Virus record (IMG/VR): IMGVR_UViG_2703718777_000029
Coordinates: 1 to 16,352 of that record
Origin: a virus
Lineage: Duplodnaviria > Heunggongvirae > Uroviricota > Caudoviricetes
DNA: 16,352 nucleotides
Strand: one strand, 5' to 3'
In this document: positions 1 to 15,128 of the stretch, piece after piece
Numbering within the stretch: position 1 is the stretch's first letter
How the letters are laid out: each line of letters starts with the position of its first letter
The notes under the pieces: model-generated
What the model saw: only the letters and a program-made list of their open reading frames with translations
The model's database searches: none
Told to the model about the DNA's origin: nothing
Made by a program: the position numbers and the translations under genes

Positions 1-426
1 TTAAAACTCTGCTTTCATTTTATCCGGGAATTTTTTATTTGCAGCATAATAACTACCAAGTATATAAGCGTTCATTTGCTGCTCTACATCAACCCGACAT
101 GCAGCACTAGAACAAGCACCACTGATAAGCCCAAAAGAACTCCCTTTAGCAGAGAGATCAGCTTTAATTTCCTCTACAGTGTTTTTCCCCATAGCAACTA
201 CACACCCTGTAACAATATATCTAGCCTTCACATCATCCATGCTAAGGATAGTGGTTTTCGCAATTTTGCTGTATCCATCATTTTTATAAACATCCATGGC
301 AAACGCACGGCAATCTGTATAATACGGACTTGCTTTAACTTGCGAATACTCAGGTAATTTCATACCTGCACAACCAACTAAACAAAAACCTATCGCTGCT
401 ATTAATACCTTTTTCATTACACTCAT
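1..426 (-). CDS. Putative lipoprotein (late-region moron), 141 aa; start may be the second ATG at 417
   Basis: N-terminus MSVMKKVLIAAIGFCLVGCAG has a basic n-region, hydrophobic core and an LVGC lipobox. The gene is visibly AT-rich compared with flanking phage genes and sits just downstream of the Q-associated terminator. Stop TAA at 1-3. No family recognised. Confidence 0.6.
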   Translation of the reverse strand: MSVMKKVLIAAIGFCLVGCAGMKLPEYSQVKASPYYTDCRAFAMDVYKNDGYSKIAKTTILSMDDVKARYIVTGCVVAMGKNTVEEIKADLSAKGSSFGLISGACSSAACRVDVEQQMNAYILGSYYAANKKFPDKMKAEF

Positions 427-573
427 AACCTAGAAGCATCATTGAAACTAATTTATTAAATATTCATCGAGTTTCTGGAATACAGACGTTACCCATCTCT
501 CCAAAATCTAAAAGATAATAAGAAAAAATGTTTAACGTACCAATCCATTTCATAGTTTCATGAGACATCAGGC

Positions 574-600
574 ACAAAAAAACCCGCTCAGCGGCGGGTT
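574..600 (-). terminator. Intrinsic terminator downstream of Q (tR'-like)
   Basis: On the minus strand: stem CCCGC (plus 594-598 / 583-587) with a 6-nt loop, extended by A-T pairs, followed by a run of 7 U (plus A-run 576-582). Lies about 105 nt downstream of the Q stop. Confidence 0.75.
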
Positions 601-646
601 CTTAAATCTTATCAACGGTAGACATACAAAGCCCATCGTTGGGAAA

Positions 647-675
647 ATCTTATCCATATTTTTTGAAAAATGCAA
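647..675 (-). promoter_or_regulatory. Candidate late promoter (PR'-like) between Q and the terminator
   Basis: Minus strand TTGCAT (675..670), 17-nt spacer, TAAGAT (652..647). Both hexamers are weak matches and the position is inferred by analogy to lambda PR'/qut. Confidence 0.25.
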
Positions 676-706
676 GCATCATGTCGCCATCTTCGGCGAA
701 AATCAT

Positions 707-1459
707 TTATCTTGTCACTTTTCTCAATTGTGTCTCTGCATATGCTTCTTCCTGCCAGCACTTTGTAACCAGTTTATCAATGATATCTGCATATCCTTTG
801 TACCACTGATAATCCGTCAGGGCAGGTACCAGCTTCTGGACATGATGCCGCGCCAGTGTGGTTGGTAAACGGCTAAACCGGTTACCATTGCAACGCCCAC
901 AAATCTTATAAACAGGCGTACCATGAAGCCGGGTTCTTTTTTCATCCAGGACAATACCTTTACCCTTACACCCTCTGCACGCTGTGCTGACTTCTCCCTT
1001 ACCATGACAATGCTGACATAGTTCCTTCACCCACTCTTCCTTGATAACAGATTCCCCGCTTCTGGAGTGTTTCACCACCTCGCGCAATACATTATGAAAT
1101 CCAGTACCAGCACAATGCTCACAGCGAGCCTTACTTGCCGCAGACCTGGAATAATCAGCAAAGGCAAAATTCACAAGGTAAGGGATGATCTGTAACCGGG
1201 TTTCTTCACTCAATTTATTCAATGTCGGGTTATCCAGTGCCATCGCGTAATTGAGCAGACCTTCAATCGCAAACTGAGGATCCTGAACACCAACTTTTGC
1301 CAGGAATAAGGCAAAACCCAGTGGTGCTTTCGACTGCACCATCCCCTGCGCAGCAATTACATCCGTAATTGTTAAACCACCAGAGCCTGTCGCCGGTGCG
1401 TCATCACTCAGTTTTGGAGATTTTGGGGAGTAATATTTTGGTAAGGCTTCAAGGTTCAT
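707..1459 (-). CDS. Late-gene antitermination protein Q-like (QuuQ-like), 250 aa
   Basis: ATG at 1459 preceded by GGAGAA at 7-nt spacing. Cys-rich central region with four CxxCxGxG-type motifs (CEHCAGTG, CQHCHGKG, CRGCKGKG, CGRCNGNR). Position immediately upstream of a strong intrinsic terminator and downstream of a DUF968 gene matches the Qin prophage ydfU-quuQ arrangement as remembered. Confidence 0.65.
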   Translation of the reverse strand: MNLEALPKYYSPKSPKLSDDAPATGSGGLTITDVIAAQGMVQSKAPLGFALFLAKVGVQDPQFAIEGLLNYAMALDNPTLNKLSEETRLQIIPYLVNFAFADYSRSAASKARCEHCAGTGFHNVLREVVKHSRSGESVIKEEWVKELCQHCHGKGEVSTACRGCKGKGIVLDEKRTRLHGTPVYKICGRCNGNRFSRLPTTLARHHVQKLVPALTDYQWYKGYADIIDKLVTKCWQEEAYAETQLRKVTR

Positions 1460-1472
1460 GCTCGTTCTCCAC

Positions 1473-2468
1473 TTACGCCAGTACGCCTATTGCCAGCGCA
1501 CGATCGATAAAACGAAATATCAGCTCCAGCTGGGAGCCATACTTCTCTTCAAATGTCACGGTATCCGCATGCAGCTCGTCGTGATGCTTTCTGCACAAAG
1601 GCAACACAAAGAGATCATGCGCTTTTGTACCCATTCCACCCTGACCGTGGCCTATCAGGTGGTGGGGATCATCAGCGGGCTTTCCACAACATGCGCACGG
1701 CTGCGTCTTAACCCAGCGCGTGTACTTTTCATTAACCCAGCGGCGACGTTTGGGGCGTAACATAAAAGACTCCGGCGACTCCGGATCCACTTTCAGCGCC
1801 AGCACCTTTTTCGCTTTATCCTGGATGATGCTGGTGGCAGGAACCGAAGGCACAAGGTCACTTTCCCGGGTGACAGACGGCACAACAGGCTTCGGTAATC
1901 TCAGTGCCTTACGGGCTGCACTTTCCGGTAAGGCATCCGCCAGGTCATTACGAATCAGCCACCAGCACAGTTCCGGCATTGTCACAACGTGACTGTCATC
2001 AAAACCGAGATCCCGACGCACAACAGACAACACCCAGCGGGCACAGTTATCCGTTGCCATTGATTCCAGCCGTTCCGTGAACTGATCGCGCAGCTGGTTA
2101 TCGCAGTGCCAGCACAGACGGATTGCACCCGGAGCGTGTCGCATTGTGGTCATGTTCTCGCTGTGCCAGTCGGAATGAAGCCACTGGCAGCCTTTTTCAC
2201 GAAGTAACCAGCTTTCAAGACATTCCACGCCACCAGCACGACGGATCACTGCCTCATTGCGGAACACGGCCCGAACGGAAGGATCATCCGCCAGCGGTTG
2301 TGATGCCGCCGGAACGGCACCACTAGCGAAAGATGAATAACGTTCCGGCTCAGGCTCCAGCAGGACACGCCCCTGCATAAACAGGGGCATCAGCTCTGAA
2401 CCTGGCCTGAACAATACGATCCCCATACGCGGGGCAATTTCAGGGGTCAGTAGTGCTCTCACGGTCAC
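1473..2468 (-). CDS. DUF968 (YdfU-like) protein with C-terminal Cys/His-rich HNH-like region, 331 aa from a GTG start
   Basis: C-terminus CACCGKPADDPHHLIGHGQGGMGTKAHDLFVLPLCRKHHDELHAD. The frame opens with GTG at 2468, one nt after the KilA-N stop; the first ATG is at 2426 with no clear SD, so the start is uncertain. Confidence 0.6.
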   Translation of the reverse strand: MTVRALLTPEIAPRMGIVLFRPGSELMPLFMQGRVLLEPEPERYSSFASGAVPAASQPLADDPSVRAVFRNEAVIRRAGGVECLESWLLREKGCQWLHSDWHSENMTTMRHAPGAIRLCWHCDNQLRDQFTERLESMATDNCARWVLSVVRRDLGFDDSHVVTMPELCWWLIRNDLADALPESAARKALRLPKPVVPSVTRESDLVPSVPATSIIQDKAKKVLALKVDPESPESFMLRPKRRRWVNEKYTRWVKTQPCACCGKPADDPHHLIGHGQGGMGTKAHDLFVLPLCRKHHDELHADTVTFEEKYGSQLELIFRFIDRALAIGVLA

Positions 2469-2469
2469 C

Positions 2470-3285
2470 TCAATGAACGGTATCGAGCAGCTTTAACAGC
2501 TCAGGGAATCGGGATTCGAAGAAATGCGGCTGCGTCTCGCGCGGATTTGCGGGACTGGTGATGTTCTTGCCGAACATGCAGCCTTTCGCCGTCAGCGACC
2601 AGAATTTTTTGATGTTGTTAATCCCGGTACGGCTGTATCGTTCGCGCTGCTCGACGATCCCCAGCTTCACCATCTGGTGATATGCCTGATTAGCCGTCAG
2701 GCGGATACCATACTGCTTCAGCAGTGCACTCAGCGACAGCGTAGGGCGGCTTGAACCATCTGGCGCATCAGCAGGTGCATCAATGGCATAGATCGGCATA
2801 AGTTCAGGAAGACCAGCTACCTTTGATAATTTCTGGTATGCACCAAGTTTCGAGGAGTTTGACAGATTTAGAGTCTTTGCTGCTGATTCAAGCAGAATGA
2901 CCCCGGATTTAATTTTGTCGGATGTGGTTTCTTCTGGTGATGAATTATGAAGCGCATCAAAAGTACGTATCACTTTTAAGCTGAATGCCGGGCTGATCCA
3001 CATTGCATATGCATAGACCAGCTCTTTACAGACATACGTCCCACCATTGCGCCCCTGAATGGTGATGACAGGAATACTACGGGAATCTCCCGTAGTTTCT
3101 TCTTCCAGTAATTCCACAAGAGCCTTCGTTTCAGGACGACGCATAAACTCGTGAACTTCCAGCGAACGGGAGGAGCGATTCTCACCAGCGGCAAGAAGAG
3201 CAGCTTTCTGAAGGTCGTTAAGACAGTAGTTAGATTCAAAGTACTGGCGCACAGAAACGCCATCAATTACAAGCAACTGATTCAT
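2470..3285 (-). CDS. KilA-N domain protein (putative antirepressor-like), 271 aa
   Basis: MNQLLVIDGVSVRQYFESNYCLNDL...ITIQGRNGGTYVCKELVYAYAMWISPAFSLKVIRTFD is a KilA-N-type N-terminal domain. ATG at 3285 is preceded by GGAGAA; the track ORF extends to 3381 but that extension lacks an RBS. Confidence 0.7.
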   Translation of the reverse strand: MNQLLVIDGVSVRQYFESNYCLNDLQKAALLAAGENRSSRSLEVHEFMRRPETKALVELLEEETTGDSRSIPVITIQGRNGGTYVCKELVYAYAMWISPAFSLKVIRTFDALHNSSPEETTSDKIKSGVILLESAAKTLNLSNSSKLGAYQKLSKVAGLPELMPIYAIDAPADAPDGSSRPTLSLSALLKQYGIRLTANQAYHQMVKLGIVEQRERYSRTGINNIKKFWSLTAKGCMFGKNITSPANPRETQPHFFESRFPELLKLLDTVH

Positions 3286-3371
3286 TGGTTTCTCCACAAA
3301 TTTCGGGACTGCACTCCCTTTTCGTTGATGCAAGATGAACTTACTGCGATTTTTAATAGTTATCAAGGATA

Positions 3372-3391
3372 CACTGTTCATAAATACAGTA
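3372..3391. promoter_or_regulatory. Candidate LexA (SOS) box upstream of the KilA-N gene
   Basis: cACTGTtcataaatACAGta contains the palindromic CTGT-N8-ACAG core (3374-3389) with an AT-rich centre; about 16 of 20 positions match the E. coli LexA consensus TACTGTATATATATACAGTA. Located in the 150-bp gap between rusA and the KilA-N gene. Confidence 0.5.
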
Positions 3392-3436
3392 TCTTTAACG
3401 AGGTAATACCCAAATTTAGGGTGTTGCTCAATTCCG

Positions 3437-3832
3437 TTACCGAGTTGCTAATTTGCAACTCGCTTTTTCGTACTTACTGATAGTGATCTCGACCTTCCCT
3501 TCCGGGATAACCGGTCCCCACTCCACCAGCATTCTTTTCACCTGACTGTCGTCTTCCCACACACCCGCGTGGGTCAGGGCGTCAAACAGCGCCTTGTTAT
3601 AGTTGTCCAGATCGCGGATCCGGTTATCCGGAGGAAACAACACGATCTCCACTGATGCAGGTGCCGACGTTGGTTTTGGCAGACGACGTAACTGCTCAAC
3701 TATTGCTGCACACGCCGCGCTCTGAAATTTTCGCCCCGCCTCGCTTATCAGGCTCTTACCAGCAAATGCCACTTTGTTGGGGTGTCGCCAGTACATGTTC
3801 ACGCTGGGCGGAAAAGGCAGTATTAGCTTCAT
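3437..3832 (-). CDS. rusA: Holliday junction resolvase RusA, 131 aa
   Basis: MKLILPFPPSVNMYWRH... and RDLDNYNKALFDALTHAGVWEDDSQV match the RusA signature (compare E. coli RusA LPWPPSNNRYYRH / [26 protein letters not shown]). Start ATG overlaps the Dam stop (ATGA at 3829-3832). Confidence 0.9.
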   Translation of the reverse strand: MKLILPFPPSVNMYWRHPNKVAFAGKSLISEAGRKFQSAACAAIVEQLRRLPKPTSAPASVEIVLFPPDNRIRDLDNYNKALFDALTHAGVWEDDSQVKRMLVEWGPVIPEGKVEITISKYEKASCKLATR

Positions 3833-4482
3833 GCCACCATCTCCCTGACCAGTTTTTCCGCCTGCTGGCGAACCTGCGCCAGAAATGCCTCACCACATGC
3901 CTCAAGTTCATCGCGCCCGATGTAGCTGATTGCCGGTCCCTTCCAGGTCTTGTCGAAAACAGCAATAGCACCAGCGAAGAAAGCACCTGTTGGCACCTGC
4001 TTTTCGTCTTTCGGGATAAACCAGGCAGGCAGTTCAAAACCAATACGCCCGCGAATAAAAGCAATATGATCTGCATCTTCCGGCCACCACACTTCGCTGG
4101 TGGCAGCTTTGATCAGGAAAACATAGCGCCCGCCTTTATCACGCATGGCACTGGCATGCTTCATGATGTAACGCATGCCGGTGATGTATTGCCCCTCATG
4201 CTGACTGGCGCGGCTGTACGGGGGATTGCCAAAGGCAGCACCTTTAAGCTCCGCAAGACGTTCTGACCAGTCATGCGCCAGCGCGTTGTCTTCCGCCGTG
4301 TAATACGCGGCACATTTGGCGTTATCACCGTCAGTGAACAGATCCAGAACAAACGGACCAAACAAGGTGTTAATTCCCCAGAAAATGTTGTCCGGCGTGC
4401 GCCACTGATCGCCCACTTCCTTCAGTTCATGGGCTGGTTTGTTCCGCAGTTCTACCAGCGCCTGGCAATATTTATTACTCAT
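3829..4482 (-). CDS. Phage DNA N6-adenine methyltransferase (Dam family), 217 aa
   Basis: NPPY catalytic motif (FGNPPYS) typical of N6-adenine methyltransferases; overall resemblance to phage orphan Dam methylases. Start ATG overlaps the stop of the upstream small ORF. Confidence 0.8.
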   Translation of the reverse strand: MSNKYCQALVELRNKPAHELKEVGDQWRTPDNIFWGINTLFGPFVLDLFTDGDNAKCAAYYTAEDNALAHDWSERLAELKGAAFGNPPYSRASQHEGQYITGMRYIMKHASAMRDKGGRYVFLIKAATSEVWWPEDADHIAFIRGRIGFELPAWFIPKDEKQVPTGAFFAGAIAVFDKTWKGPAISYIGRDELEACGEAFLAQVRQQAEKLVREMVA

Positions 4483-4574
4483 TAAGCCCCCACGTAAAAA
4501 GCATCCGCAATGTCTCCGGAAGTACAGCCCGGATGGGCTTCAATGAATTTCTGAACGTCATTTAACAGACTCAT
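4482..4574 (-). CDS. Unannotated small ORF, 30 aa (MSLLNDVQKFIEAHPGCTSGDIADAFYVGA), between the replication and Dam genes
   Basis: Hand-translated from the sequence. ATG at 4574 lies 2 nt after the O-like stop, preceded by AGGGGG; its TAA overlaps the Dam ATG (TAATG at 4480-4484). Below the ORF-track length cutoff. Confidence 0.4.
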   Translation of the reverse strand: MSLLNDVQKFIEAHPGCTSGDIADAFYVGA

Positions 4575-4576
4575 GA

Positions 4577-5407
4577 TCACCCCCTGAATCCTGCCGGGAT
4601 CTGGCTGTAGTCCACGTTGTCGTAACTGGCTTTGAAGTACGGGTCCTCACGTCCGGCTACAGATACCGCAGGAACTTCCCAGGATTCTTCGAAATGACGA
4701 TCCGGACCAAAGAACGTGACAGCCTGTTTCACAAATTGTGTGCCGCTGTTACCCATCGCAGATACCCAGCCCGCGTAGCGTTTCACACCTTCCAGCATGG
4801 TTTCGGGTTTTACCCCCTCATTCAAACGGGCTTTCCAGGCTTTGAAGGCTGCAGATTTTGAATTGCCACCAGCACGTTTGGGGTATGCCAGCCATGCCTG
4901 CTCAAACTCCGGAGAGTATTCCGGTCGGTTTGAACGAACTCGCACAGACTCATCAGCAGATGCACCAACAGCTATTGGTTCATTGACTGGTTCTTTGACT
5001 GGTTCTTTGACTGGTTCAAAAGAGTGACTGGTTCTGGGTGAATCTCCTGCACTACCCCCTGGTGCAACTCCTGCACTACCTGGTGAATTTGCTGCACCAG
5101 ATAGTGAATTATTTGCACTACCCCCTAGTGAATCTCCTGCACCATCCAGATGAAGGAGATAGATATTACTTGAGTTACCTTTTTCACCTTTCCGGGTGAC
5201 TTTTTTTACCAGCCCGGACTCACAAAGGGCCGCAATATGATTCATCACAGAACGTTTGCTAATCTCGCACTGGTCAGCAATATGCTGGTAGCTGGGCCAG
5301 CACTCGCCCTGATCGCTGGCATTATCAGCCAGCTTAATCAGAACCAGTTTTCGCAATGGATTTCCCACTCGAATTTTCATCGCTTTAACCATCAGCTCCA
5401 TACTCAT
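4577..5407 (-). CDS. Replication initiator (O-like) with N-terminal winged-HTH domain and internal repeat linker, 276 aa
   Basis: N-terminal LRKLVLIKLADNASDQGECWPSYQHIADQCEISKRSVMNHIAALCESGLVKK resembles phage replication-initiator HTH domains. Central low-complexity G/S/A-rich linker and EPVKEPVKEPV are encoded by DNA repeats. ATG at 5407 has a strong GGAGGTG RBS and overlaps the upstream stop (ATGA); the track start at 5446 is a TTG. Confidence 0.65.
   Translation of the reverse strand: MSMELMVKAMKIRVGNPLRKLVLIKLADNASDQGECWPSYQHIADQCEISKRSVMNHIAALCESGLVKKVTRKGEKGNSSNIYLLHLDGAGDSLGGSANNSLSGAANSPGSAGVAPGGSAGDSPRTSHSFEPVKEPVKEPVNEPIAVGASADESVRVRSNRPEYSPEFEQAWLAYPKRAGGNSKSAAFKAWKARLNEGVKPETMLEGVKRYAGWVSAMGNSGTQFVKQAVTFFGPDRHFEESWEVPAVSVAGREDPYFKASYDNVDYSQIPAGFRG
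4983..5145. repeat. Iteron-like direct repeats inside the O-like gene (candidate origin of replication)
   Basis: Three tandem copies of TTTGACTGGTTC (4982-5017) plus a fourth TGACTGGTTC (5025-5034), then about five degenerate ~24-bp repeats of the type GAATCTCCTGCACTACCCCCTGGT (5039-5145), followed by an AT-rich stretch. Analogous to lambda ori iterons embedded in O. Confidence 0.5.
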
Positions 5408-5628
5408 GCAGCACCTCCGAGATGCTTCATGTTTTTTCCGGAGCAAAAGGCTATAAGCGGCATACTGATGCGGTAATTACGGCCCAGCGGTTCACAAATC
5501 ACCTTCTGACATTCACGGTCAACCAGGCTAACACGTAGAACATGCCCTGCAGGTGTGGTGTACCACTGACCGGGGCGAGGACAACGGAAAGTCTGATTGG
5601 TAAACCGTTTGAAAATATTCCGGATCAT
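5404..5628 (-). CDS. Hypothetical small protein, 74 aa
   Basis: ATG at 5628 preceded by AAGGGGG and overlapping the Rha stop (ATGA); its stop overlaps the O-like ATG (ATGA). No recognisable domain. Confidence 0.5.
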   Translation of the reverse strand: MIRNIFKRFTNQTFRCPRPGQWYTTPAGHVLRVSLVDRECQKVICEPLGRNYRISMPLIAFCSGKNMKHLGGAA

Positions 5629-6773
5629 TTACGCCCCCTTACCTCTGAAGAGTTCAGCGACGAATGAATAAGACGGGCAAGAAATGCCGCATCGTTAATT
5701 CGGTCATACAGACTTACAGCCAGCGGTGATTCAACTTTTGCCAACATAGGATAAAGCTGCTGCAGCCAGACCTGATGAATTGATGAAATGTAGGAATAGA
5801 GAACGTTGGCGTTATGTGCAACGTCGCTCGGTACAGAGGGCTTTGAAAGCTGTTTCTCCATCTGGTTAAAGGCATTGATGTATGCCTCTTTGAACTGGGC
5901 AGCACGTTTACCAGTGAAACCCATAGCAAGAAACGCAAAGCCGTCGCGGGTTATTTGATAGCAAGGTAGTTTGCGGCCTGTGCAATCGGTGTAATCACTC
6001 ACCGAAAAATTGCGGGCAGTGAATGATGCGGAACATTCAAGCGTGCGGATCTTTTTCAGTACATCGTCATGACGTTTGGAGAAGAAGTTGGCAACAGCCA
6101 GGGATGAAGTAACAGCCTGACCATCAACGATGGCAATTTCAGGTTGAGTGAGGGTTGGGATCGTAGCCATGATGGCAGCCTCCGTTGACTGTGGAAAACT
6201 TCCACCACCGGAGCTGCGAAACTCACTGGTGGCAGACTGAACAGGGTTCGCAGTACCGGCGTCAACGGAGACCGGCGAGCCTTTCGGCTCCCCTGCCCAG
6301 CCCACCATAATTCTGGCGTGCGTGAGCGCGGACGATAAAAAAGACGCTGGCGCGTCGTATATCGCCGTTGACAATTCCGGGCTGCGACCCCCGGCACCCG
6401 CTTTATAAGGTGCCTGAACAGTGTAACGTCCCGGAATTCCAGAATCAATATGCTGGTGGTCCTTCACACTCAACAAAATCACGCCTGAATTTCCACAAAG
6501 GACTAAAGCACTCATGTGGGTAGTCTTTGCGAAGATAGATAACGCGCTGTGTTTCTGGCTCCCAACGAATAACATGAACATAAAGTCCTCTTCCGTCACG
6601 AAACCAGCGGTTAAGTTCCTGCACAACTCGCCCCCCACAGTCAGGTAAAGTTCTCTGTGGTTACTTACAGCCAGGTGATTTGGTAATCTGCATTCATGCC
6701 GTAACAACAGGTGTTCAGAGACGCTGACCACCAGCTGTTGCGACAAACGGTTATTTGCCGTTAAACTGTTCAT
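5625..6773 (-). CDS. Rha-family phage regulatory protein; Rha domain begins at the internal ATG at 6170 (181 aa), while the open frame continues upstream to 6773 (382 aa)
   Basis: MATIPTLTQPEIAIVDGQAVTSSLAVANFFSKRHDDVLKKIRTLE... is a typical Rha N-terminus, and the ATG at 6170 has GGAGG 8 nt upstream. The frame stays open for 201 further codons upstream to an ATG at 6773 that overlaps the CII-like stop (ATGA). The 6171-6773 portion has no recognised domain. Confidence 0.65.
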   Translation of the reverse strand: MNSLTANNRLSQQLVVSVSEHLLLRHECRLPNHLAVSNHRELYLTVGGELCRNLTAGFVTEEDFMFMLFVGSQKHSALSIFAKTTHMSALVLCGNSGVILLSVKDHQHIDSGIPGRYTVQAPYKAGAGGRSPELSTAIYDAPASFLSSALTHARIMVGWAGEPKGSPVSVDAGTANPVQSATSEFRSSGGGSFPQSTEAAIMATIPTLTQPEIAIVDGQAVTSSLAVANFFSKRHDDVLKKIRTLECSASFTARNFSVSDYTDCTGRKLPCYQITRDGFAFLAMGFTGKRAAQFKEAYINAFNQMEKQLSKPSVPSDVAHNANVLYSYISSIHQVWLQQLYPMLAKVESPLAVSLYDRINDAAFLARLIHSSLNSSEVRGRK

Positions 6774-7354
6774 GCGTTAGTTTCTCCACAACCAGAAGCA
6801 ATCGACGCCACGACGCCCGGAGCTGCACACTCGCGGGCGTTACTCTTTTCCGGTGCACAAAAAACACGAAATAACAGTGTTAAATGCTCCTGCCACTTCG
6901 CCATTACTTGGTAGCTGTTCTCTTCGATTTGCTCACGCTCAGCCTGGTCAATAACTCCATCAGCAGTTGCCTTGCGTAAGTACTGGGAATGCTTGCCAAT
7001 CCATTCTATTGACTCCATCAGCCGCTGATTAATGTCACCATTGTCAATGTCATCAATGACCACCAGCGGCACAAACACCCCATAACTACGACGGGCTATT
7101 GCATCTGTTACATGCCTGGTACCACTGGCATCCTGTAAAACCATGGCCCACTCAAGTGGAAAAATTTGATCCCCACCGCTACGCAGTCTGTTATGCAATT
7201 GATCTTTTGCTGGGGTGATATCATCAGATTTATACAAACCAAGAATTTCTGCTGCTTCCTCATAGCCATGAGGTAAATCAGCAATCGTTCTTCGTATTGC
7301 TGCCACCAGCCATGCTGGTTGTTTATCAACTTTCCATTCAGGTTCTTTACCCAC
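6770..7354 (-). CDS. CII-like / YdaT-family early regulator, 194 aa from a GTG start
   Basis: Second gene of the rightward early operon, directly after the Cro-like gene. GTG at 7354 is preceded by GAGGAA at 8-nt spacing. Family assignment is from position and weak sequence impression only. Confidence 0.45.
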   Translation of the reverse strand: MGKEPEWKVDKQPAWLVAAIRRTIADLPHGYEEAAEILGLYKSDDITPAKDQLHNRLRSGGDQIFPLEWAMVLQDASGTRHVTDAIARRSYGVFVPLVVIDDIDNGDINQRLMESIEWIGKHSQYLRKATADGVIDQAEREQIEENSYQVMAKWQEHLTLLFRVFCAPEKSNARECAAPGVVASIASGCGETNA

Positions 7355-7381
7355 GGTTAATTCCTCATTTCTGTGGTGTTT

Positions 7382-7579
7382 TTATGCCGCAGCACTGTTA
7401 GTCTTTTGATATAAAGACACGTCAACTTTCAGTTTCCCGTTAGTAATTTTTTCTAACTGGTACGCTCGGCCTTCAGGAATAATCTCAGGCCACTCTGAAA
7501 CAGACGGATGCTTAATACCTAGGGCTTCGGCGGTTTTACAAACTCCGCCGAAATAATTAATCACGTCGGATTTCCGCAT
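7382..7579 (-). CDS. Cro-like (YdaS-type) HTH DNA-binding protein, 65 aa
   Basis: Small HTH protein (GGVCKTAEALGIKHPSVSEWPEIIPEGRAYQLEKITNGKL) divergent from the CI-like repressor; GGGAGA RBS 7 nt upstream of the ATG. Confidence 0.75.
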   Translation of the reverse strand: MRKSDVINYFGGVCKTAEALGIKHPSVSEWPEIIPEGRAYQLEKITNGKLKVDVSLYQKTNSAAA

Positions 7580-7610
7580 TTCTGTCTCCCGTTAAATTAC
7601 GTTAAGCAGA

Positions 7611-7676
7611 AATGTAGGATATCCAACATACCAATGTCAAGAATCCTACATAGTCATGTGGTAGGATTGCCTACAT
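7611..7676. promoter_or_regulatory. Right operator/promoter region: three operator sites and a PR-like promoter
   Basis: Site 1 ATGTAGGATATCCAACAT (7612-7629) is a near-palindrome. Site 2 (7634-7651) and site 3 (7659-7676) share the half-site ATCC(T/A)ACAT. On the minus strand, TTGACA (7640..7635), 18-nt spacer, TACATT (7616..7611) overlaps site 1 and would drive cro. Confidence 0.6.
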
Positions 7677-8328
7677 GATGAACATGAGTGATCGTATTCG
7701 CCAAAGGCGAAAAGAACTGAACCTGACACAACAAGCACTGGCTGATTTGACTGGTGTGAACCGTGTCACGGTTACTGGATGGGAAAAGGACGACTACCAA
7801 CCAAATGGAGCCAACCTTCAAGCCCTAGCCAACGCACTTAAATGCGATCCTCTGTGGCTTGTTAGCGGAAAAGGCTCGCCTGAACCAAAGATAAATCTAA
7901 AACCTGAAATATTCGCAGTTAAAAAAGTCCCCCTCATCTCGTGGGTTCAGGCGGGTTCATGGACAATGACGGAGCCTGGTGTCAGGAAAGAAGATGCTGA
8001 AGAGTGGGTTTATACTACCGCCCTTGTATCAGAAATGGCATTTGCACTACGGGTCCGTGGTGATTCAATGACCAATCCCCTCGGCTCACCATCGATACCA
8101 GAAGGTTCTATCGTTATCGTAGAGCCAGATATTATTGATACAGAGTGTATTAACGGAAAAATCGTTGTTGCCCATATCAATGGTGGGCAAGAAGCGACAC
8201 TCAAAAAATTTGTTGAGGACTGGCCGAACAGGTATCTCGTCCCACTAAATCCTAACTATAAAACTATTGAATGCGGTGAGAACTGCAGAATAGTTGGTCT
8301 TGTCAAACAAGTAATAATGGATTTTTGA
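7675..8328 (+). CDS. CI-like prophage repressor (XRE-family HTH plus S24 LexA-like autopeptidase domain), 217 aa
   Basis: N-terminal HTH (LNLTQQALADLTGVNRVTVTGWE); C-terminal S24 peptidase signature with GDSM serine (RVRGDSMTNP) and a downstream lysine (EATLKKF). No SD before the ATG cluster at 7675/7678/7684, so the mRNA may be leaderless as for lambda cI. Confidence 0.85.
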   Translation: MMNMSDRIRQRRKELNLTQQALADLTGVNRVTVTGWEKDDYQPNGANLQALANALKCDPLWLVSGKGSPEPKINLKPEIFAVKKVPLISWVQAGSWTMTEPGVRKEDAEEWVYTTALVSEMAFALRVRGDSMTNPLGSPSIPEGSIVIVEPDIIDTECINGKIVVAHINGGQEATLKKFVEDWPNRYLVPLNPNYKTIECGENCRIVGLVKQVIMDF

Positions 8329-8350
8329 CACATCTTCCTCACTATCGCAA

Positions 8351-8375
8351 AACCGGGGTATCCCCGGTTTTTTTA
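8351..8375 (+). terminator. Intrinsic terminator after the cI-like gene (bidirectional shape)
   Basis: AACCGGGG-tat-CCCCGGTT hairpin followed by TTTTTTT and preceded by an A-run. Confidence 0.7.
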
Positions 8376-8390
8376 TGAGCCTATCTTTTT

Positions 8391-8444
8391 ATGTAGGATA
8401 ACCAACATAAACTCTTGACACTCACATGTTGGATATCCTACATT
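8391..8444 (+). promoter_or_regulatory. Left operator/promoter region: two operator sites and a PL-like promoter
   Basis: ATGTAGGATAACCAACAT (8391-8408) and ATGTTGGATATCCTACAT (8426-8443); the latter is the exact reverse complement of right-side site 1. TTGACA (8415-8420), 18-nt spacer, TACATT (8439-8444) mirrors the PR-like promoter. Confidence 0.6.
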
Positions 8445-8602
8445 TGTTTTTAGAGTTGTGGTGAATGCGCAGGCTGATGCGCGAAAGACATTGCAGCTAT
8501 TACGGAAAAGAGCTGTTCGGCGGGGCAATTAAATGCCCGTGAGAGTCTGAAATAACCGCAAGCCGGAGATCAGCACCGATCACCACAACAGCCACTGCTT
8601 TG

Positions 8603-8650
8603 GCGGTACCAGTTTGTACACTTGCTTCCGGCTGGTACCGCTCTTTTTAC
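8603..8650 (+). terminator. Terminator-like hairpin in the early-left leader (possible attenuator or end of a short leader RNA)
   Basis: Perfect 10-bp inverted repeat GCGGTACCAG (8603-8612) / CTGGTACCGC (8632-8641) with a 19-nt loop, followed by TCTTTTTAC. The sequence CGCTCTTTTTA spanning the 3' arm resembles a boxA element. Confidence 0.4.
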
Positions 8651-8785
8651 AAAACAGAGAAGAGCATCACCGGACGACGGGCTCATAACCCAATCCACCC
8701 GGGCGGCTGCCACCGCAGGTGTTCTTCTCTGTTTTGTGGAGAAACCAACCGACCTTGCAGGGTCGATATGATGAGGAGCAGCAAA

Positions 8786-9148
8786 ATGGCTAGCGAACGC
8801 AGTACTGATGTGCAGGCATTTATCGGGGAGTTGGACGGCGGCGTATTTGAAACCAAAATCGGCGCTGTTCTCAGTGAAGTCGCTTCCGGTGTGATGAACA
8901 CGAAAACCAAAGGTAAGGTCTCGCTCAACCTGGAAATCGAACCGTTTGATGAGAACCGTGTGAAAATCAAACACAAACTCTCATATGTTCGCCCGACTAA
9001 CCGCGGGAAAATTTCCGAAGAAGACACCACCGAAACGCCGATGTATGTCAATCGCGGTGGTCGCCTGACTATTCTGCAGGAAGACCAGGGACAATTACTG
9101 ACTCTTGCCGGTGAACCTGACGGAAAACTACGCGCAGCAGGTCATTAA
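8786..9148 (+). CDS. YfdP-like early protein, 120 aa
   Basis: ATG at 8786 preceded by AGGAG at 7-nt spacing; the upstream in-frame extension to 8600 in the track has no RBS and overlaps the leader hairpin. Size and position match CPS-53 YfdP as remembered. Confidence 0.55.
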   Translation: MASERSTDVQAFIGELDGGVFETKIGAVLSEVASGVMNTKTKGKVSLNLEIEPFDENRVKIKHKLSYVRPTNRGKISEEDTTETPMYVNRGGRLTILQEDQGQLLTLAGEPDGKLRAAGH

Positions 9149-9213
9149 TATCGTTCTTAATTAACTGATTATTTATCTCATCACTGAATATCTTTATATA
9201 GTGAGGACTTATT

Positions 9214-10038
9214 ATGTCTCAGAACTTAGACGCAACCGCAATTAATCAAATCCATGCCCTTATTTCTGCTCAGGGTGTTAATGAAATTATCAGTAAGATT
9301 GGTGCCGATGCTGTGGCATTGCCTGAGAATTTCCGCATTCATGATCTGGAAAAATTTAATTTAAATCGCTTCCGTTTCCGTGGTGCGCTTTCCACTGCCA
9401 GCATCGATGACTTTACCCGTTATTCTAAAGATCTTGCAGATGAAGGCACCCGCTGCTTTATCGATGCCGATAATATGCGTGCCGTCAGTGTGCTTAACCT
9501 GGGTACTATTGATGAACCAGGTCACGCAGATAACACCGCCACTCTCAAGCTAAAAAAGACAGCACCGTTTTCTGCTCTGTTGTCTGTTAATGGCGAGCGT
9601 AACTCCCAGAAGTCACTGGCAGAATGGATTGAAGACTGGGCCGACTACCTTGTGGGCTTTGATGCTAATGGTGACGCTATTCAGGCAACAAAAGCGGCTG
9701 CGGCTGTCCGTAAAATCACGATTGAAGCAAACCAGACCGCTGATTTTGAAGATAATGACTTCAGCGGCAAACGCTCCCTGATGGAGTCTGTCGAAGCGAA
9801 GACCAAAGATATTATGCCAGTGGCATTTGAATTTAAATGCGTTCCGTTTGAAGGTCTGAAAGAACGTCCATTTAAATTACGCCTCAGCATTATCACTGGC
9901 GATCGTCCTGTACTGGTTCTGCGCATTATTCAGCTGGAAGCAGTGCAGGAAGAAATGGCTAACGAATTTCGTGATCTGCTTGTTGAGAAATTCAAAGACA
10001 GCAAAGTAGAAACCTTTATTGGTACTTTCACCGCCTGA
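9214..10038 (+). CDS. DUF2303 (YfdQ-like) protein, 274 aa
   Basis: Length and overall character match E. coli CPS-53 YfdQ as remembered; GTGAGGA RBS 6 nt upstream of the ATG. Confidence 0.6.
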
Positions 10039-10050
10039 TTTCATTACTGC

Positions 10051-10072
10051 AAATGCCCCTGCGGGGGCATTT
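10051..10072 (+). terminator. Hairpin between the yfdQ-like and yfdR-like genes (weak terminator or attenuator candidate)
   Basis: AAATGCCCC-tgcg-GGGGCATTT, a 9-bp stem with a 4-nt loop; only a short T tract follows. Confidence 0.3.
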
Positions 10073-10165
10073 ATGGAAACGTAATTAACTCAATAATCGC
10101 CGGATGGTGAGGGCTTCCTTTTACCAGAATTCAGCGCGGTGCAGCGCATATACGTGGAGAACAAA

Positions 10166-10702
10166 ATGTCATTTATTAAAACTTTTTCCGGTAAGCATTT
10201 TTATTATGACAGGATAAATAAAGACGACATCGATATTAACGATATCGCGGTTTCCCTTTCAAATATCTGTCGCTTTGCCGGTCATCTTTCGCACTTCTAC
10301 AGCGTCGCCCAACATGCGGTTCTTTGCAGCCAGCTGGTACCGCAGGAATTTGCTTTTGAAGCGTTAATGCATGATGCAACAGAAGCGTATTGCCAGGACA
10401 TCCCCGCTCCACTGAAACGCCTTCTTCCTGACTATAAACAGATGGAAGAAAAAATAGACGCCGTAATCCGTGAGAAATACGGGTTACCCCCGGTTATGAG
10501 TACGCCCGTGAAATATGCCGATCTCATCATGCTGGCAACCGAACGCCGCGATCTCGGGCTTGATGATGGCTCTTTCTGGCCTGTACTGGAAGGCATCCCG
10601 GCAACAGAGATGTTCAACGTGATTCCACTGGCACCGGGCCATGCCTACGGGATGTTTATGGAACGTTTTAACGAGTTATCGGAGTTACGCAAATGCGCAT
10701 GA
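10166..10702 (+). CDS. HD-domain phosphohydrolase (YfdR-like 5'-deoxynucleotidase), 178 aa
   Basis: HD-domain His and His-Asp motifs (SVAQHAVLCSQ...LMHDATEAY). ATG at 10166 preceded by GGAG; the track GTG at 10139 has no RBS. Length matches E. coli YfdR. Confidence 0.7.
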   Translation: MSFIKTFSGKHFYYDRINKDDIDINDIAVSLSNICRFAGHLSHFYSVAQHAVLCSQLVPQEFAFEALMHDATEAYCQDIPAPLKRLLPDYKQMEEKIDAVIREKYGLPPVMSTPVKYADLIMLATERRDLGLDDGSFWPVLEGIPATEMFNVIPLAPGHAYGMFMERFNELSELRKCA

Positions 10703-11043
10703 ATGTTTTCGAAATGGAAGGGTTTCTTCGCGGGAAATGTGTACCGCGAGATCTGAAAGTGAATGAAACAAATGCTGAGTATCTGGTGCGTAAATTCGAT
10801 GAAGTACGTGCTGAGGCTCGCAACGAGGGTATTAACTATACCGCAAGCCGCCTTGCTGCTGCGTTCAATCACGGATTTATCAATAAGTCTTTACGTGAAG
10901 TTTTCGACGTTACACGCATGATTCTGTCAGCGAAAGATGAGTTGGCTAATGAACCGCACCCGATTGATGGTCTGTCCGGTGAATATGCGGAGAAATCCCT
11001 TGAAGAATGGGCGGAACAGATTCGCAAAGGAGGCAACCAGTGA
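10693..11043 (+). CDS. Hypothetical early protein, 116 aa
   Basis: ATG at 10693 with GGAG 8 nt upstream; overlaps the yfdR-like stop by 10 nt. No recognised domain. Confidence 0.5.
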   Translation: MRMNVFEMEGFLRGKCVPRDLKVNETNAEYLVRKFDEVRAEARNEGINYTASRLAAAFNHGFINKSLREVFDVTRMILSAKDELANEPHPIDGLSGEYAEKSLEEWAEQIRKGGNQ

Positions 11044-11684
11044 ATAACCGCTTTTACATGATGTGCTTGCGTGAAACTGTGGGTAATAACGCTTCATTCC
11101 ATTGCCATAACGGCAATGGTTACAGTTCTAATATCGATCGCGCTCATGTTTACACGCTGGAAGAAGCCCAAAAAGCCTGGAATTGTGGTCGAGATATCGA
11201 TCAGCCTGTTTGCGCTGATAGCGTGGATGCAATGGCTGTGTGGCACGTTGATTGCCAGTACATCCCTACAGAAAACCTGATTGAGCCAGATTGCACTGCG
11301 TATGTGGCCTACAAAAAAGGTAGCTGGAACGGCAACGATGTTTACTGGCTTCAACACGGTGGATTGCCAACAGATGACTTCAGTAAAGCGACCATCTTTA
11401 GCGTCGCCAACAAAAACGAACCAGGAATAGTTTGGTTGCCATTTTCCATTGCTGATTCAGCAAAGCGCCGGACGTTCAATATCAATAACTTTAACCGCAG
11501 AACAATGGTTCAGGGCGCAGGTTTGGTCATGCCTGACTGGTTGAAAAAGCAGAACAGAAGAAAGAAGTCGCGAAGCGGGAAGGTGCGTTGGAATTGTCCG
11601 CATTGCGGAAAAATCACCTGGCAGTACAACCCATATGATTTTGAAGGCTGTAGTGATTACAACTGTGAAGGATGGCGAGAATGA
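11040..11684 (+). CDS. Hypothetical Cys-rich protein with C-terminal zinc-ribbon-like CPHCG...C..C motif, about 214 aa from GTG
   Basis: GTG at 11040 has a perfect AGGAGG SD 7-8 nt upstream and overlaps the upstream stop (GTGA); the alternative ATG is at 11058. Confidence 0.45.
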   Translation: MNNRFYMMCLRETVGNNASFHCHNGNGYSSNIDRAHVYTLEEAQKAWNCGRDIDQPVCADSVDAMAVWHVDCQYIPTENLIEPDCTAYVAYKKGSWNGNDVYWLQHGGLPTDDFSKATIFSVANKNEPGIVWLPFSIADSAKRRTFNINNFNRRTMVQGAGLVMPDWLKKQNRRKKSRSGKVRWNCPHCGKITWQYNPYDFEGCSDYNCEGWRE

Positions 11685-12277
11685 CAATTGACTATCAGGC
11701 ACTGCGTGAAAAGGCAGAGAAAGCAACTAAAGGAAGCTACATCGTAGGGCATACATCTGTTAACCAGCACGGCAATTTAACAGGAGTTTTTGTTTGCCAA
11801 AAATGGAAAGGAGAACTCGGTGGCGTGATTGCGGAATGTCATGTTAACTGCCTGGTTGAAACAGATGTTCAGGCTTATGCAAACGCTGAATTTATTGCAG
11901 CTTTTAATCCAAATGTTGCGCTGACACTACTGGATGAACGGGAAAGAAATCAGCAATACATCAAATCACGCGACCAGGAGAACGAGGAAATTGCGCTAAC
12001 GGTTGGGAAGCTGCGAGTTGAGCTTGAGGAGACAAAATCAAAACTCAACGAGCAGCGTGAGTATTACGAAGGTGTTATCTCCGATGGGAACAAGCGTATT
12101 GCTGAACTGGAAGCGCGGGAAGTTCAATTACCGACTCGCTACGACCTTCGATATGGACACCCGATAAATGCAGATGAGCGACATGTCATGATACCTAAAG
12201 AAAATGGCAGTTGGCTTTACCTGATTGACCTAGAACACGCATTACGCGTCGCTGGCATTCGCATCAAAGGAGAGTGA
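11681..12277 (+). CDS. Ead/Ea22-like protein, 198 aa
   Basis: N-terminus MTIDYQALREKAEKATKGSY is the characteristic Ea22-like start, followed by a coiled-coil-like middle. ATG overlaps the upstream stop (ATGA at 11681-11684); the track start at 11672 adds three codons. Confidence 0.65.
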   Translation: MTIDYQALREKAEKATKGSYIVGHTSVNQHGNLTGVFVCQKWKGELGGVIAECHVNCLVETDVQAYANAEFIAAFNPNVALTLLDERERNQQYIKSRDQENEEIALTVGKLRVELEETKSKLNEQREYYEGVISDGNKRIAELEAREVQLPTRYDLRYGHPINADERHVMIPKENGSWLYLIDLEHALRVAGIRIKGE

Positions 12278-12278
12278 G

Positions 12279-12983
12279 ATGACCACTTTTACCGACAAAG
12301 AACTGATTAAAGAAATCAAAGAGCGCATAGGCAGCTTGGACGTTCGAGACAATATTGAGCGCCGTGCTTATGAAATTGCACTGGCATCGCTGGAAGAAGA
12401 TCCGGTTGCTTATATTTTCAAACATCCGGCCGGGAAATTATTCTGGGCTTTAACGGATGAAAGCAATAAAGAGCAAGCGGACGTTATTCCTGTTTATGCT
12501 GCCGCGCCTGCATCGGTTGTGCCGGATAATACATCAAAGCCTCTTGCTTATGCTTACAAAGAGCTTACGCCTGAGATTATGCGCAACCATTTAGCTGTAT
12601 TCGAGCGATATGGAATAGCCCCAAACGATAGCACTACCACAATTCAGGCACTGCGAATCGCGCTGGATGGTATAGAGCGGAGCGCCGCCATGCTTCAGGG
12701 TGCCAAACCTGTAAGCCAAACTTACAAGTTGAACGAGCTATCGGGCAACTCTCCGGTGACTCCGGATGGTTGGATAAGCTGTAGTGAGCGAATGCCGAAA
12801 AAGAATCAGAACGTACTTATTTCGGTGAATTTCGATAGTGATCTGGTTGAGCCGCTAATATGCTCCGCACGCTATACCGGAAGCACCTTTCGGCGCGGAG
12901 ATGCAACGATTAAGCCGGGTAATGGTATTGAGCAAGCAACTCACTGGATGCCGCTACCAGAACCGCCGCAGGAGGTAAAGTAA
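12279..12983 (+). CDS. DUF551 domain protein, 234 aa
   Basis: C-terminal DGWISCSERMPKKNQNVLISV...EQATHWMPLPEPPQ is typical of DUF551. GGAG RBS; start lies 2 nt after the upstream stop. Confidence 0.65.
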   Translation: MTTFTDKELIKEIKERIGSLDVRDNIERRAYEIALASLEEDPVAYIFKHPAGKLFWALTDESNKEQADVIPVYAAAPASVVPDNTSKPLAYAYKELTPEIMRNHLAVFERYGIAPNDSTTTIQALRIALDGIERSAAMLQGAKPVSQTYKLNELSGNSPVTPDGWISCSERMPKKNQNVLISVNFDSDLVEPLICSARYTGSTFRRGDATIKPGNGIEQATHWMPLPEPPQEVK

Positions 12984-13177
12984 TGAACAACTTAATGACA
13001 ACTAAACAAGTCGCCAACTTCTGTGGAGTTTCAGTATCGACAGTTCTTCGCTGGAACAGCGTAAACAGGAGAACTGGCCAGAAATACAGGCCTGACTTCC
13101 CAGATCCTGATATTAAATCCTGCCCAAATAAATGGGCATCACGCAAGATATACAGGTTTGCGGGAGTTATTGAGTAA
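12983..13177 (+). CDS. Excisionase-like (AlpA/Xis family) HTH protein, 64 aa
   Basis: HTH TTKQVANFCGVSVSTVLRW followed by FPDP...W, resembling lambda Xis and AlpA motifs. GGAGGT RBS; ATG overlaps the upstream TAA (TAATG). Last gene of the early-left operon before the integration module. Confidence 0.55.
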   Translation: MNNLMTTKQVANFCGVSVSTVLRWNSVNRRTGQKYRPDFPDPDIKSCPNKWASRKIYRFAGVIE

Positions 13178-13341
13178 TACGTATTCGTTCAGATGTGAGT
13201 TAACACATCTATGGCACAGAGCTAAACCTAATAAGACTGTCTACTCTGTGCCTGAAGTAGATGTTGCAAATACCACCAGCGAAGCACCAAAATTAATGGT
13301 GCAGGATGATGCAGATAATTCTGATGAAAACACCCAGAATT

Positions 13342-13350
13342 TGTTACAAT
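13342..13350 (+). promoter_or_regulatory. Candidate extended -10 promoter for the AT-rich membrane-protein gene
   Basis: TGtTACAAT (TG, one base, then TACAAT) about 60 nt upstream of the ATG at 13410; no convincing -35 element. Confidence 0.35.
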
Positions 13351-13409
13351 AAGTACATAGTATTAAAGTTTTTTATGAATGTCTAAATGTATCTTATTCA
13401 GAGGTGATA

Positions 13410-14957: not shown

Positions 14958-15044
14958 TGATATATTTATCCATCACCTGCTTATATTGCAGGTGGTATCC
15001 TGAACCCAGTTGATCTATCAGTCAAAAAGTTAATCGTATAGCGT

Positions 15045-15096
15045 TCAAATATAAGAATAATGGCAGCTCTCGCTTTACGCTCAAAGCAGGCTGCCA
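15045..15096 (-). terminator. Candidate terminator between the convergent membrane-protein and integrase genes
   Basis: Inverted repeat TGGCAGC (15061-15067) / GCTGCCA (15090-15096) with internal GCTTT/AAAGC pairing, followed on the minus strand by a U-rich tract. A second hairpin CACCTGC-ttatatt-GCAGGTG lies at 14974-14994. Confidence 0.35.
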
Positions 15097-15128
15097 AATT
15101 TGATTACATACTGGCTGGGCATACTGTA

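Follow-up and report, generated by a model that had tools for sequence, protein, structure and literature searches.

The stretch of DNA analysed here, hereafter the window (16,352 nucleotides (nt) from a virus of the class Caudoviricetes, positions 1 to 16,352 of IMG/VR record IMGVR_UViG_2703718777_000029), carries an open reading frame (ORF) of 382 codons, starting with ATG, in which a Rha gene is preceded in the same frame by 603 nt of open sequence (6171..6773). We propose, with a probability of roughly 0.7, that this extension is a regulatory leader of the P4 eta/kil type, kept translatable in the Rha frame. The complete 'Ash-Rha' ORF (5625..6773; like every feature given below by window coordinates, it lies on the minus strand) is the counterpart of P4 eta, and it spans a DUF4222 gene, a predicted promoter, two small RNA (sRNA) genes, the target site of one of them and Rha itself. 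The finding is an instance of a published arrangement, that of P4 eta/kil with its CI RNA, in a lambdoid Escherichia coli prophage, and the mechanism is not new: P4 eta/kil, P1 c4 and Gifsy-1 isrK have all been published. What is added is an explanation of the Ash domain of Rha/Ash proteins, a complete overlap with a DUF4222 gene and the exposure of inconsistent annotation in RefSeq.

Rfam models place both sRNA genes within the extension. The first is an isrK/P4 seqA-like sRNA (6337..6413; RF01394, 56.9 bits against a cut-off of 50), and the second a C4/P4 CI-type antisense RNA (6225..6312; RF01695, 78.8 bits against a cut-off of 45, over the full model, 1-87). Besides these two, no RNA family is matched in 6100-6900 at E≤1. 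The families for elements of the P1/P7 type are RF01695 (C4) and RF03163 (c4-a1b1), and the isrK region of the window falls below the threshold of the latter, which several relatives exceed. The pairing elements of P1 c4 are arranged as a1b1, a'b' and a2b2, and those of P4 as seqA, CI and seqC. In the window, isrK holds a1 (TCGCAG, 6382-6387) and b1 (GTCAACGG, 6365-6372), together with an intrinsic terminator called by a scan (hairpin 6343-6356 followed by T6). C4 holds b' in the loop of its second hairpin (CTCCGTTGAC, 6261-6270), a single-stranded a' (CTGCGAA, 6247-6253) and a conserved ATG of the orf45 type (6306-6308) in frame with Rha. Covariation locates a downstream C4 target at 6179..6220, the counterpart of a2/b2 of P1 and of seqC of P4; it consists of a2 (TTCGCAG, 6214-6220) and b2 (GTCAACGGAG, 6180-6189), the latter overlapping the Rha Shine-Dalgarno sequence GGAGG (6179-6183). 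Eight nt downstream of this GGAGG sits the internal ATG (6170-6168) of a nested Rha gene of 181 amino acids (aa) (5625..6170), which has its own Shine-Dalgarno sequence and start codon and is the counterpart of P4 kil. The Rha domain itself (PF09669, Phage_pRha) is matched by residues 222-307 of the long ORF (1.8e-30, 105.8 bits against 29.9).

A sigma-70-type promoter, the counterpart of P4 PLE, is predicted just before the first RNA (6420..6448; TTGATT, 17 nt, TACACT). Six nt separate the end of its -10 hexamer from the 5' end of isrK (6413), and its -35 hexamer overlaps the stop codon of the DUF4222 gene. Most of the 19 diverse loci compared, including P4, carry identical hexamers equally far from the 5' end of isrK, and this conservation suggests that the promoter is functional.

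Covariation was adopted as the test of the RNA pairings, duplex energies compared with shuffles being uninformative for full-length partners, and was scored over 28 non-identical cassettes, P4 included. In the three helices of C4 (closing stem and two hairpins), pairing is 99.8-100%, and both partners have changed in 13 of the pairs. Between C4 and its downstream target, b'-b2 is 92% paired (both partners changed in 7 of 8 pairs) and a'-a2 85% (6 of 7); between C4 and isrK, pairing reaches 100% for both a1-a' (5 of 6) and b1-b' (7 of 8). None of 500 shuffles attained the observed covariation score, and controls with slid partners were paired at 35-46% in the test of the C4 stems, a2 and b2 and at 34-51% in that of a1 and b1. 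Among 20 loci from other species, 16 have the isrK-C4 pair before Rha with fixed spacing, and the pair is also present in P4. The a and b loop sequences differ between relatives, variants that predict testable heteroimmunity classes. A separate feature of this region is the invariant GGTGGTG (6196-6202) just downstream of C4, which is a repeat of the 5' strand (TGGTGGG) of the closing stem of C4 and could pair in its place with the 3' strand (CCACCA); such pairing is suggestive of a switch between alternative structures, comparable to A and B of the Gifsy-1 locus.

The same layout is seen in P4 (NC_001609), where the isrK and C4 models match at 8615-8692 and 8420-8507, in the same order and orientation as in the window and inside one long ORF. 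The P4 frame (8168..8812) contains eta, whose ATG at 8767 overlaps the stop codon of ORF88/alpA; likewise, in the window, the long-ORF ATG (6773-6771) and the stop codon TGA (6772-6770) of the YmfL/CII-like gene before it overlap as ATGA (6770-6773), and the coupling to that gene proposed in a preliminary description of this DNA is upheld. In both, a promoter, in the window a predicted one, stands at the same position before the first RNA and the Pfam Ash family covers the RNA region. BLASTP aligns the long ORF with the P4 eta frame (2e-15) over residues 111-276, which include the nested start EAAIMAT, and P4 aligns with the window through isrK, C4 and GGAGGCTGCCATCATG, the context of the nested start being identical (GGAGGCTGCCATCATG/EAAIMAT). 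In P4 this EAAIMAT would be the start of kil, judging from the description of the nested gene and the length of the frame that remains. Conserved, and homologous to the P4 kil start, with which it shares the EAAIMAT context, the internal start at 6170 is a genuine, separate initiation site, as had been supposed.

According to those parts of Forti et al. (1999) that are relayed in PMC10111431, the P4 CI RNA is encoded within eta, which is coupled to an upstream alpA homologue; transcripts from the internal constitutive promoter are terminated by CI-seqA interactions and processed to CI, translation of eta prevents this termination, and Kil is a truncated, nested Eta. The C4 and isrK models have also been used to find CI/seqA relatives inside Bro-network genes of phage-inducible chromosomal islands (PMC10111431, 2023). 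P4 differs from the window in several respects. It is a satellite, whereas the window carries the early operon of a lambdoid (Shiga toxin (Stx)/O111-type) prophage; its nested product is a short Kil polypeptide rather than a 181-aa Rha, its upstream partner is AlpA-like rather than YmfL/CII-like, and its seqA and CI stand about 100 nt further apart. Unlike the P4 frame, the long ORF of the window additionally overlaps a whole DUF4222 gene. Finally, the mechanism has been tested experimentally in P4, whereas for the window it is inferred.

Two further systems share parts of this organization. In Gifsy-1 of Salmonella, isrK with its leaky terminator is followed by the structured STnc1160 (the C4 region), and orf45, which starts about 107 nt after the isrK 5' end, is translated and required for expression of the anti-repressor gene anrP; the nucleotides of orf45 are conserved and its amino acids variable (Hershko-Shalev et al. 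2016, PMC4825925). The window has the same succession of isrK, a C4 region with an ORF start (ATG 6306-6308) and an anti-repressor-type gene, and in both cases isrK pairs with the downstream region. However, orf45 ends in an AUGA overlap with anrP, the two being separate coupled cistrons, whereas ATG 6306-6308 of the window runs stop-free into Rha; moreover, the frame of the window extends 155 codons upstream of this ATG to the preceding gene, unlike in Gifsy-1, where the upstream neighbour is antQ. In the immI region of P1/P7 (c4-icd-ant), as in the window, C4 elements are complementary to upstream a1/b1 and downstream a2/b2 elements on the same transcript, b2 covers the ribosome-binding site of a gene that precedes, or is, the anti-repressor gene, and the loop sequences vary between elements as determinants of specificity. 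The regulated gene is icd/ant in P1/P7 and Rha in the window.

Wholly inside the long ORF, in another frame, lies a 59-aa DUF4222 gene (6445..6624) with a GTG start and a G-rich Shine-Dalgarno sequence. Its product matches DUF4222 (PF13973; Pfam 9.4e-14, 51.1 bits against a threshold of 27) and, over its full length, phrog_1343 (1.9e-36). In comparison with the copy in an Stx1a phage (L004), third codon positions of the DUF4222 frame account for 30 of the 43 nucleotide differences, with 25 synonymous and 9 non-synonymous changes; read in the long frame, the same nucleotides yield 1 synonymous and 32 non-synonymous changes, the same as in the third frame. Because the third-position excess is in the DUF4222 frame and the long frame resembles the third frame, amino-acid selection in the overlap acts on the former, and the overlapping residues 51-109 of the long ORF evolve like a non-coding frame. 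DUF4222 is annotated at the equivalent place in RefSeq and in phage 1720a-02. The preliminary description had considered that homologues might code this interval otherwise, and they do as far as this gene in another frame is concerned; a gene on the opposite strand is rejected, the plus-strand frames carrying 6-11 stop codons and no plus-strand ORF exceeding 51 aa.

The extension had also been described as matching nothing and possibly forming a novel N-terminal domain. Profile searches return known families instead: residues 117-212 match Phage_ASH of Pfam (PF10554; 5e-17, 62.7 bits against a 26-bit cut-off), several PHROGs match as well, and the Pfam and PHROG families together cover residues 61-212. 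With the P4 Eta and Rfam matches given above, the first claim falls, and a novel protein domain is rejected on the Pfam, PHROG and Rfam matches together with the codon analysis. The nucleotides encoding residues 117-212 are precisely those of isrK, of C4 and of the sequence between C4 and the Rha start, and the Ash match in the window is the translated image of the two sRNA genes. Variation in this region tracks RNA base-pairing, with compensatory changes, and not amino-acid similarity, so that its conservation is due to RNA pairing. Within a single AlphaFold2 run, residues 1-210 obtain a predicted local distance difference test (pLDDT) score of 24-31 and the Rha part one of 55-83, values that rest on a shallow alignment (10 close sequences) and are therefore weak evidence only. 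The low pLDDT, the overlap with the RNAs and the pairing-driven variation all argue against an independently folded, amino-acid-conserved domain. In the annotation of APSE-8, the two RNAs are listed apart from the Bro-N gene.

These observations bear on the view that the ORF encodes a genuine two-part protein of 382 aa, the N-terminal 201 residues of which act as protein (e.g. as a regulatory or oligomerisation domain), the RNAs being merely embedded. Such a protein would agree with the open frame and its coupling to the upstream gene, with the Pfam and PHROG families over residues 61-212, with the many database entries in which the full-length product is annotated, and with P4 Eta, a real translated product in the account available through PMC10111431. 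It is hard to reconcile with the non-coding-like evolution of the amino acids in the DUF4222 overlap, with compensatory variation on both sides of the RNA pairs and with the contrast in pLDDT; the conserved nucleotides and variable amino acids of orf45 in Gifsy-1 (Hershko-Shalev et al., PMC4825925) point the same way. In addition, the frame is wholly missing from some cassettes, and the same extension is joined elsewhere to unrelated C-terminal products: in a 278-aa 'ash family protein' found on 392 contigs (P0090), the 201-residue extension is 83% identical (L165, 858-1694) and the shared EAAIMAT junction is followed by an unrelated 77-aa product instead of Rha. We consider a two-part protein unlikely.

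Sequence comparison shows that selection holds the frame open, whereas its amino-acid sequence is not conserved. Over 6171..6773 the long frame has no stop codon and each of the remaining five frames has 6-11; only 0.045% of dinucleotide-preserving shuffles (n=20,000) leave the long frame stop-free. The open frame is real and beyond chance expectation, as the preliminary description had maintained, and a chance origin is rejected on the shuffle test and the stop counts per frame.

Relatives were gathered by the Rha protein alone, which leaves the sample unbiased by upstream content. An in-frame upstream extension of about 200 codons is present in some 95 of 98 close relatives. Among loci from other species, 12 of 18 have an extension of 60-408 codons, the control frames there reaching 66 codons at most. 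Within 260 nt upstream of the Rha ATG, 34 unique sequences hold 7 distinct stop positions in frame 0 (4 without the frameshifted L090) against 33 in frame 1 and 22 in frame 2, a depletion with a binomial P of 1e-6 to 6e-5, the counts being not fully independent because the sequences are related. A mere composition effect of G+C-rich RNAs is rejected, as the other two frames of the very same sequences hold these 22-33 stop positions. When the upstream 360 nt are considered, no frame-0 stop occurs in 46 of 50 unique segments, the other frames being stop-free in 4-7 and 9-12 of them; the number of stops per sequence in the upstream segments is 0 in the long frame versus 5 and 11. When the DUF4222 gene is recoded synonymously, the long frame remains open in only about 4% of cases, and every insertion or deletion seen among eight aligned phage copies has a length divisible by three.

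The start of the long frame is conserved in position as well. Its first ATG overlaps (as ATGA or TGATG) or abuts the stop codon of the preceding gene in seven different contexts: it overlaps a YmfL-like gene, DUF4222 (in three loci of Edwardsiella and Izhakiella), a 63-aa ORF, a helicase gene, a copy of Ash-Rha and P4 ORF88, and in L004 it lies 2 nt after the stop of a helix-turn-helix gene. The architecture is present in mEp460, ST64B, SfV-like and Stx phages and in P4, as well as in loci of Citrobacter, Serratia, Edwardsiella, Pantoea, Izhakiella and Symbiopectobacterium. In one locus (L012) the ATG at the head of C4 is out of frame, and the long frame is open all the same.

This evidence also bears on the possibility that the long frame goes untranslated. 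Expression would then be confined to DUF4222, the two RNAs and Rha started at 6170, the openness being a by-product of G+C-rich RNAs and an overlapping coding frame, and the long coding sequence an annotation artefact. RefSeq does give the identical DNA also as DUF4222 plus a shorter Rha, APSE-8 and Aeromonas have working cassettes that lack the long frame, and the translation of this frame shows neither amino-acid conservation nor more than low AlphaFold confidence. A by-product, however, would not account for stop depletion that is frame-specific, for the rarity of open frames among shuffles and recodings, for indels confined to multiples of three or for an ATG that meets the upstream stop in seven unrelated contexts; furthermore, translation of the homologous frame in P4, eta, is reported in what PMC10111431 relays. 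We therefore regard an untranslated frame as quite improbable. That a recent frameshift or lost stop fused a separate upstream ORF to Rha in this prophage, as the preliminary description had also entertained, has nothing beyond the appearance of the ORF to recommend it and is refuted by the recurrence of the open frame and coupled start in different genera, in P4 and in seven upstream contexts and by the rarity of broken copies (3 of 98), leaving it with hardly any likelihood.

The three broken copies among the close relatives (L090, L098 and L155) comprise one frameshift and two frames with stops, and could be decaying copies or sequencing errors. Two loci from other species deserve mention. 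In Izhakiella australiensis (L016, 1289-3043) the long frame reaches 584 codons: between DUF4222 and isrK it runs across an insertion of two genes on the opposite strand (1513-1947 and 1865-2146), which on sequence grounds is a striking case of openness apparently maintained over foreign DNA. Symbiopectobacterium purcellii (L019, 831-3040) carries a tandem duplicate of the entire Ash-Rha cassette, with two isrK-C4 pairs, and the second long-ORF ATG overlaps the stop of the first long ORF.

By analogy with P4, P1 c4-icd-ant and Gifsy-1, the leader may operate as follows. In the lysogen, the internal promoter would yield isrK and read-through transcripts, from the latter of which C4 RNA would be cut. 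This RNA would occlude the Rha ribosome-binding site and favour premature termination, keeping Rha and the downstream replication genes off, with the a and b sequences setting the specificity of immunity. Once the early promoter fires (cro, then the ymfL-like gene), ribosomes finishing the YmfL-like gene would start again at ATG 6773 and go on translating across DUF4222, isrK with its terminator, C4 and the target site. Their transit would prevent the RNA foldings and pairings, and the transcript would thereby escape both the RNA immunity and the terminator. The output would be an Ash-Rha fusion, possibly beside Rha from the nested start, followed by the coupled 74-aa gene and the replication gene. 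In such a scheme the amino-acid sequence of the extension would be largely irrelevant and its openness would be what counts.

Apart from the shallow AlphaFold2 alignment and the relatedness of the sequences mentioned above, several points weigh against the proposed leader. We infer from the analogous systems that translation begins at 6773, that the promoter is active, that the RNAs are processed and that termination is overcome, and a closely following ribosome may plausibly suppress an intrinsic terminator. A consensus scan with a threshold of 9/12 passed over the predicted internal promoter, which has 8/12 matches; as nothing was called at this threshold, support for the promoter comes from conservation. 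The drift test across DUF4222 is only modest, with per-lineage probabilities of 0.16, 0.42 and 0.54. The long frame is short or absent in the isrK-C4 cassettes of Aeromonas, Erwinia, Phlomobacter and APSE-8, and in two loci (L018 and L020) it is open through C4 only. The RNA system can thus work without the long frame, as these two loci indicate, and its absence from more distant cassettes makes it a feature of an eta-like subfamily and not of all C4 systems.

Proteins with Rha and Ash domains are common in Stx phages, the Ash domain being without known function (PMC8951638). The protein of the window is of the same kind, and here the 'domain' (PF10554) coincides with two Rfam RNA genes and their target. 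A more general statement can be made tentatively, at somewhat less than even odds: the Ash half of Ash-Rha in E. coli lambdoid prophages, many Stx phages among them, would be no domain but a ribosome track, selected only for openness, by which early transcripts escape RNA immunity, and the resulting switch would gate Rha and the replication genes, hence induction. Related sequence is present in 2136 of 5426 complete E. coli genomes. The P4 logic of translating through the immunity region would be extended to lambdoid and Shiga-toxin prophages; by acting on an anti-repressor-type regulator and on replication genes, the switch would there govern induction and the release of toxin.

The RNA genes also clarify an annotation problem affecting thousands of genomes, in which calls such as 'Ash domain', 'ash family protein', 'peptidase' or 'antirepressor' before Rha-type genes obscure a pair of regulatory RNA genes along with their target site and, in the window, a DUF4222 gene as well. 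In RefSeq, DNA that is 99.9-100% identical to window 5600-6800 and encodes the same YmfL-like protein is annotated in two incompatible ways (L163, L164): one version combines DUF4222 with a 296-aa Rha that begins at an internal start, and the other shows a single 382-aa Rha without DUF4222. Features for the non-coding RNAs isrK and C4 are absent from both versions. A protein of the P0090 type is labelled 'immunity region' in phage Ayreon. As for the name of the Ash family, PF10554 matches the old 'cI 137-aa' ORF of P4 over the CI RNA (L162, NC_001609, 7888-8584). P4 epsilon was considered as the source of the name or function and rejected, since it matches PF25738 and not PF10554. PF10554 has served as the epsilon marker in P4-like satellites (PMC8628076); because it matches the ORF over the CI RNA and not epsilon, this marker probably tracked the eta/CI region adjoining epsilon.

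The gene upstream of the long ORF (6770..7354 in the ORF list, 194 aa) owes its 'CII-like' label to a match with phrog_101 (6.8e-61). The Pfam family Phage_CP76 scores 25.7 bits on it, slightly below the 26-bit cut-off, and its RefSeq product name is 'YmfL family putative regulatory protein'. Between its stop codon and the DUF4222 start lie codons 1-50 of the long ORF (6625..6773), which match no family in Pfam, PHROG or Rfam; this segment is kept in YmfL-type relatives and swapped out in the Stx1a phage L004. Its inverted repeats (TAACGG..CCGTT, CAACAG..CTGTTG and CCACAG..CTGTGG, within 6625-6770, a region without an Rfam match) may represent RNA structure or a protein-binding site. The last of them adjoins the G-rich Shine-Dalgarno sequence of DUF4222, and in ST64B CAACAG..CTGTTG is replaced by a different inverted repeat, CCGG..CCGG.

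On the other side of the cassette, a 74-aa gene (5404..5628; phrog_1153), whose ATG overlaps the Rha stop as ATGA, is the next link of a translationally coupled chain toward a replication gene (4577..5446). The 59-aa DUF4222 protein has a weak match to this same phrog_1153 (E 0.008), and the cassette may thus be flanked by two small proteins that are distantly related to each other in sequence.

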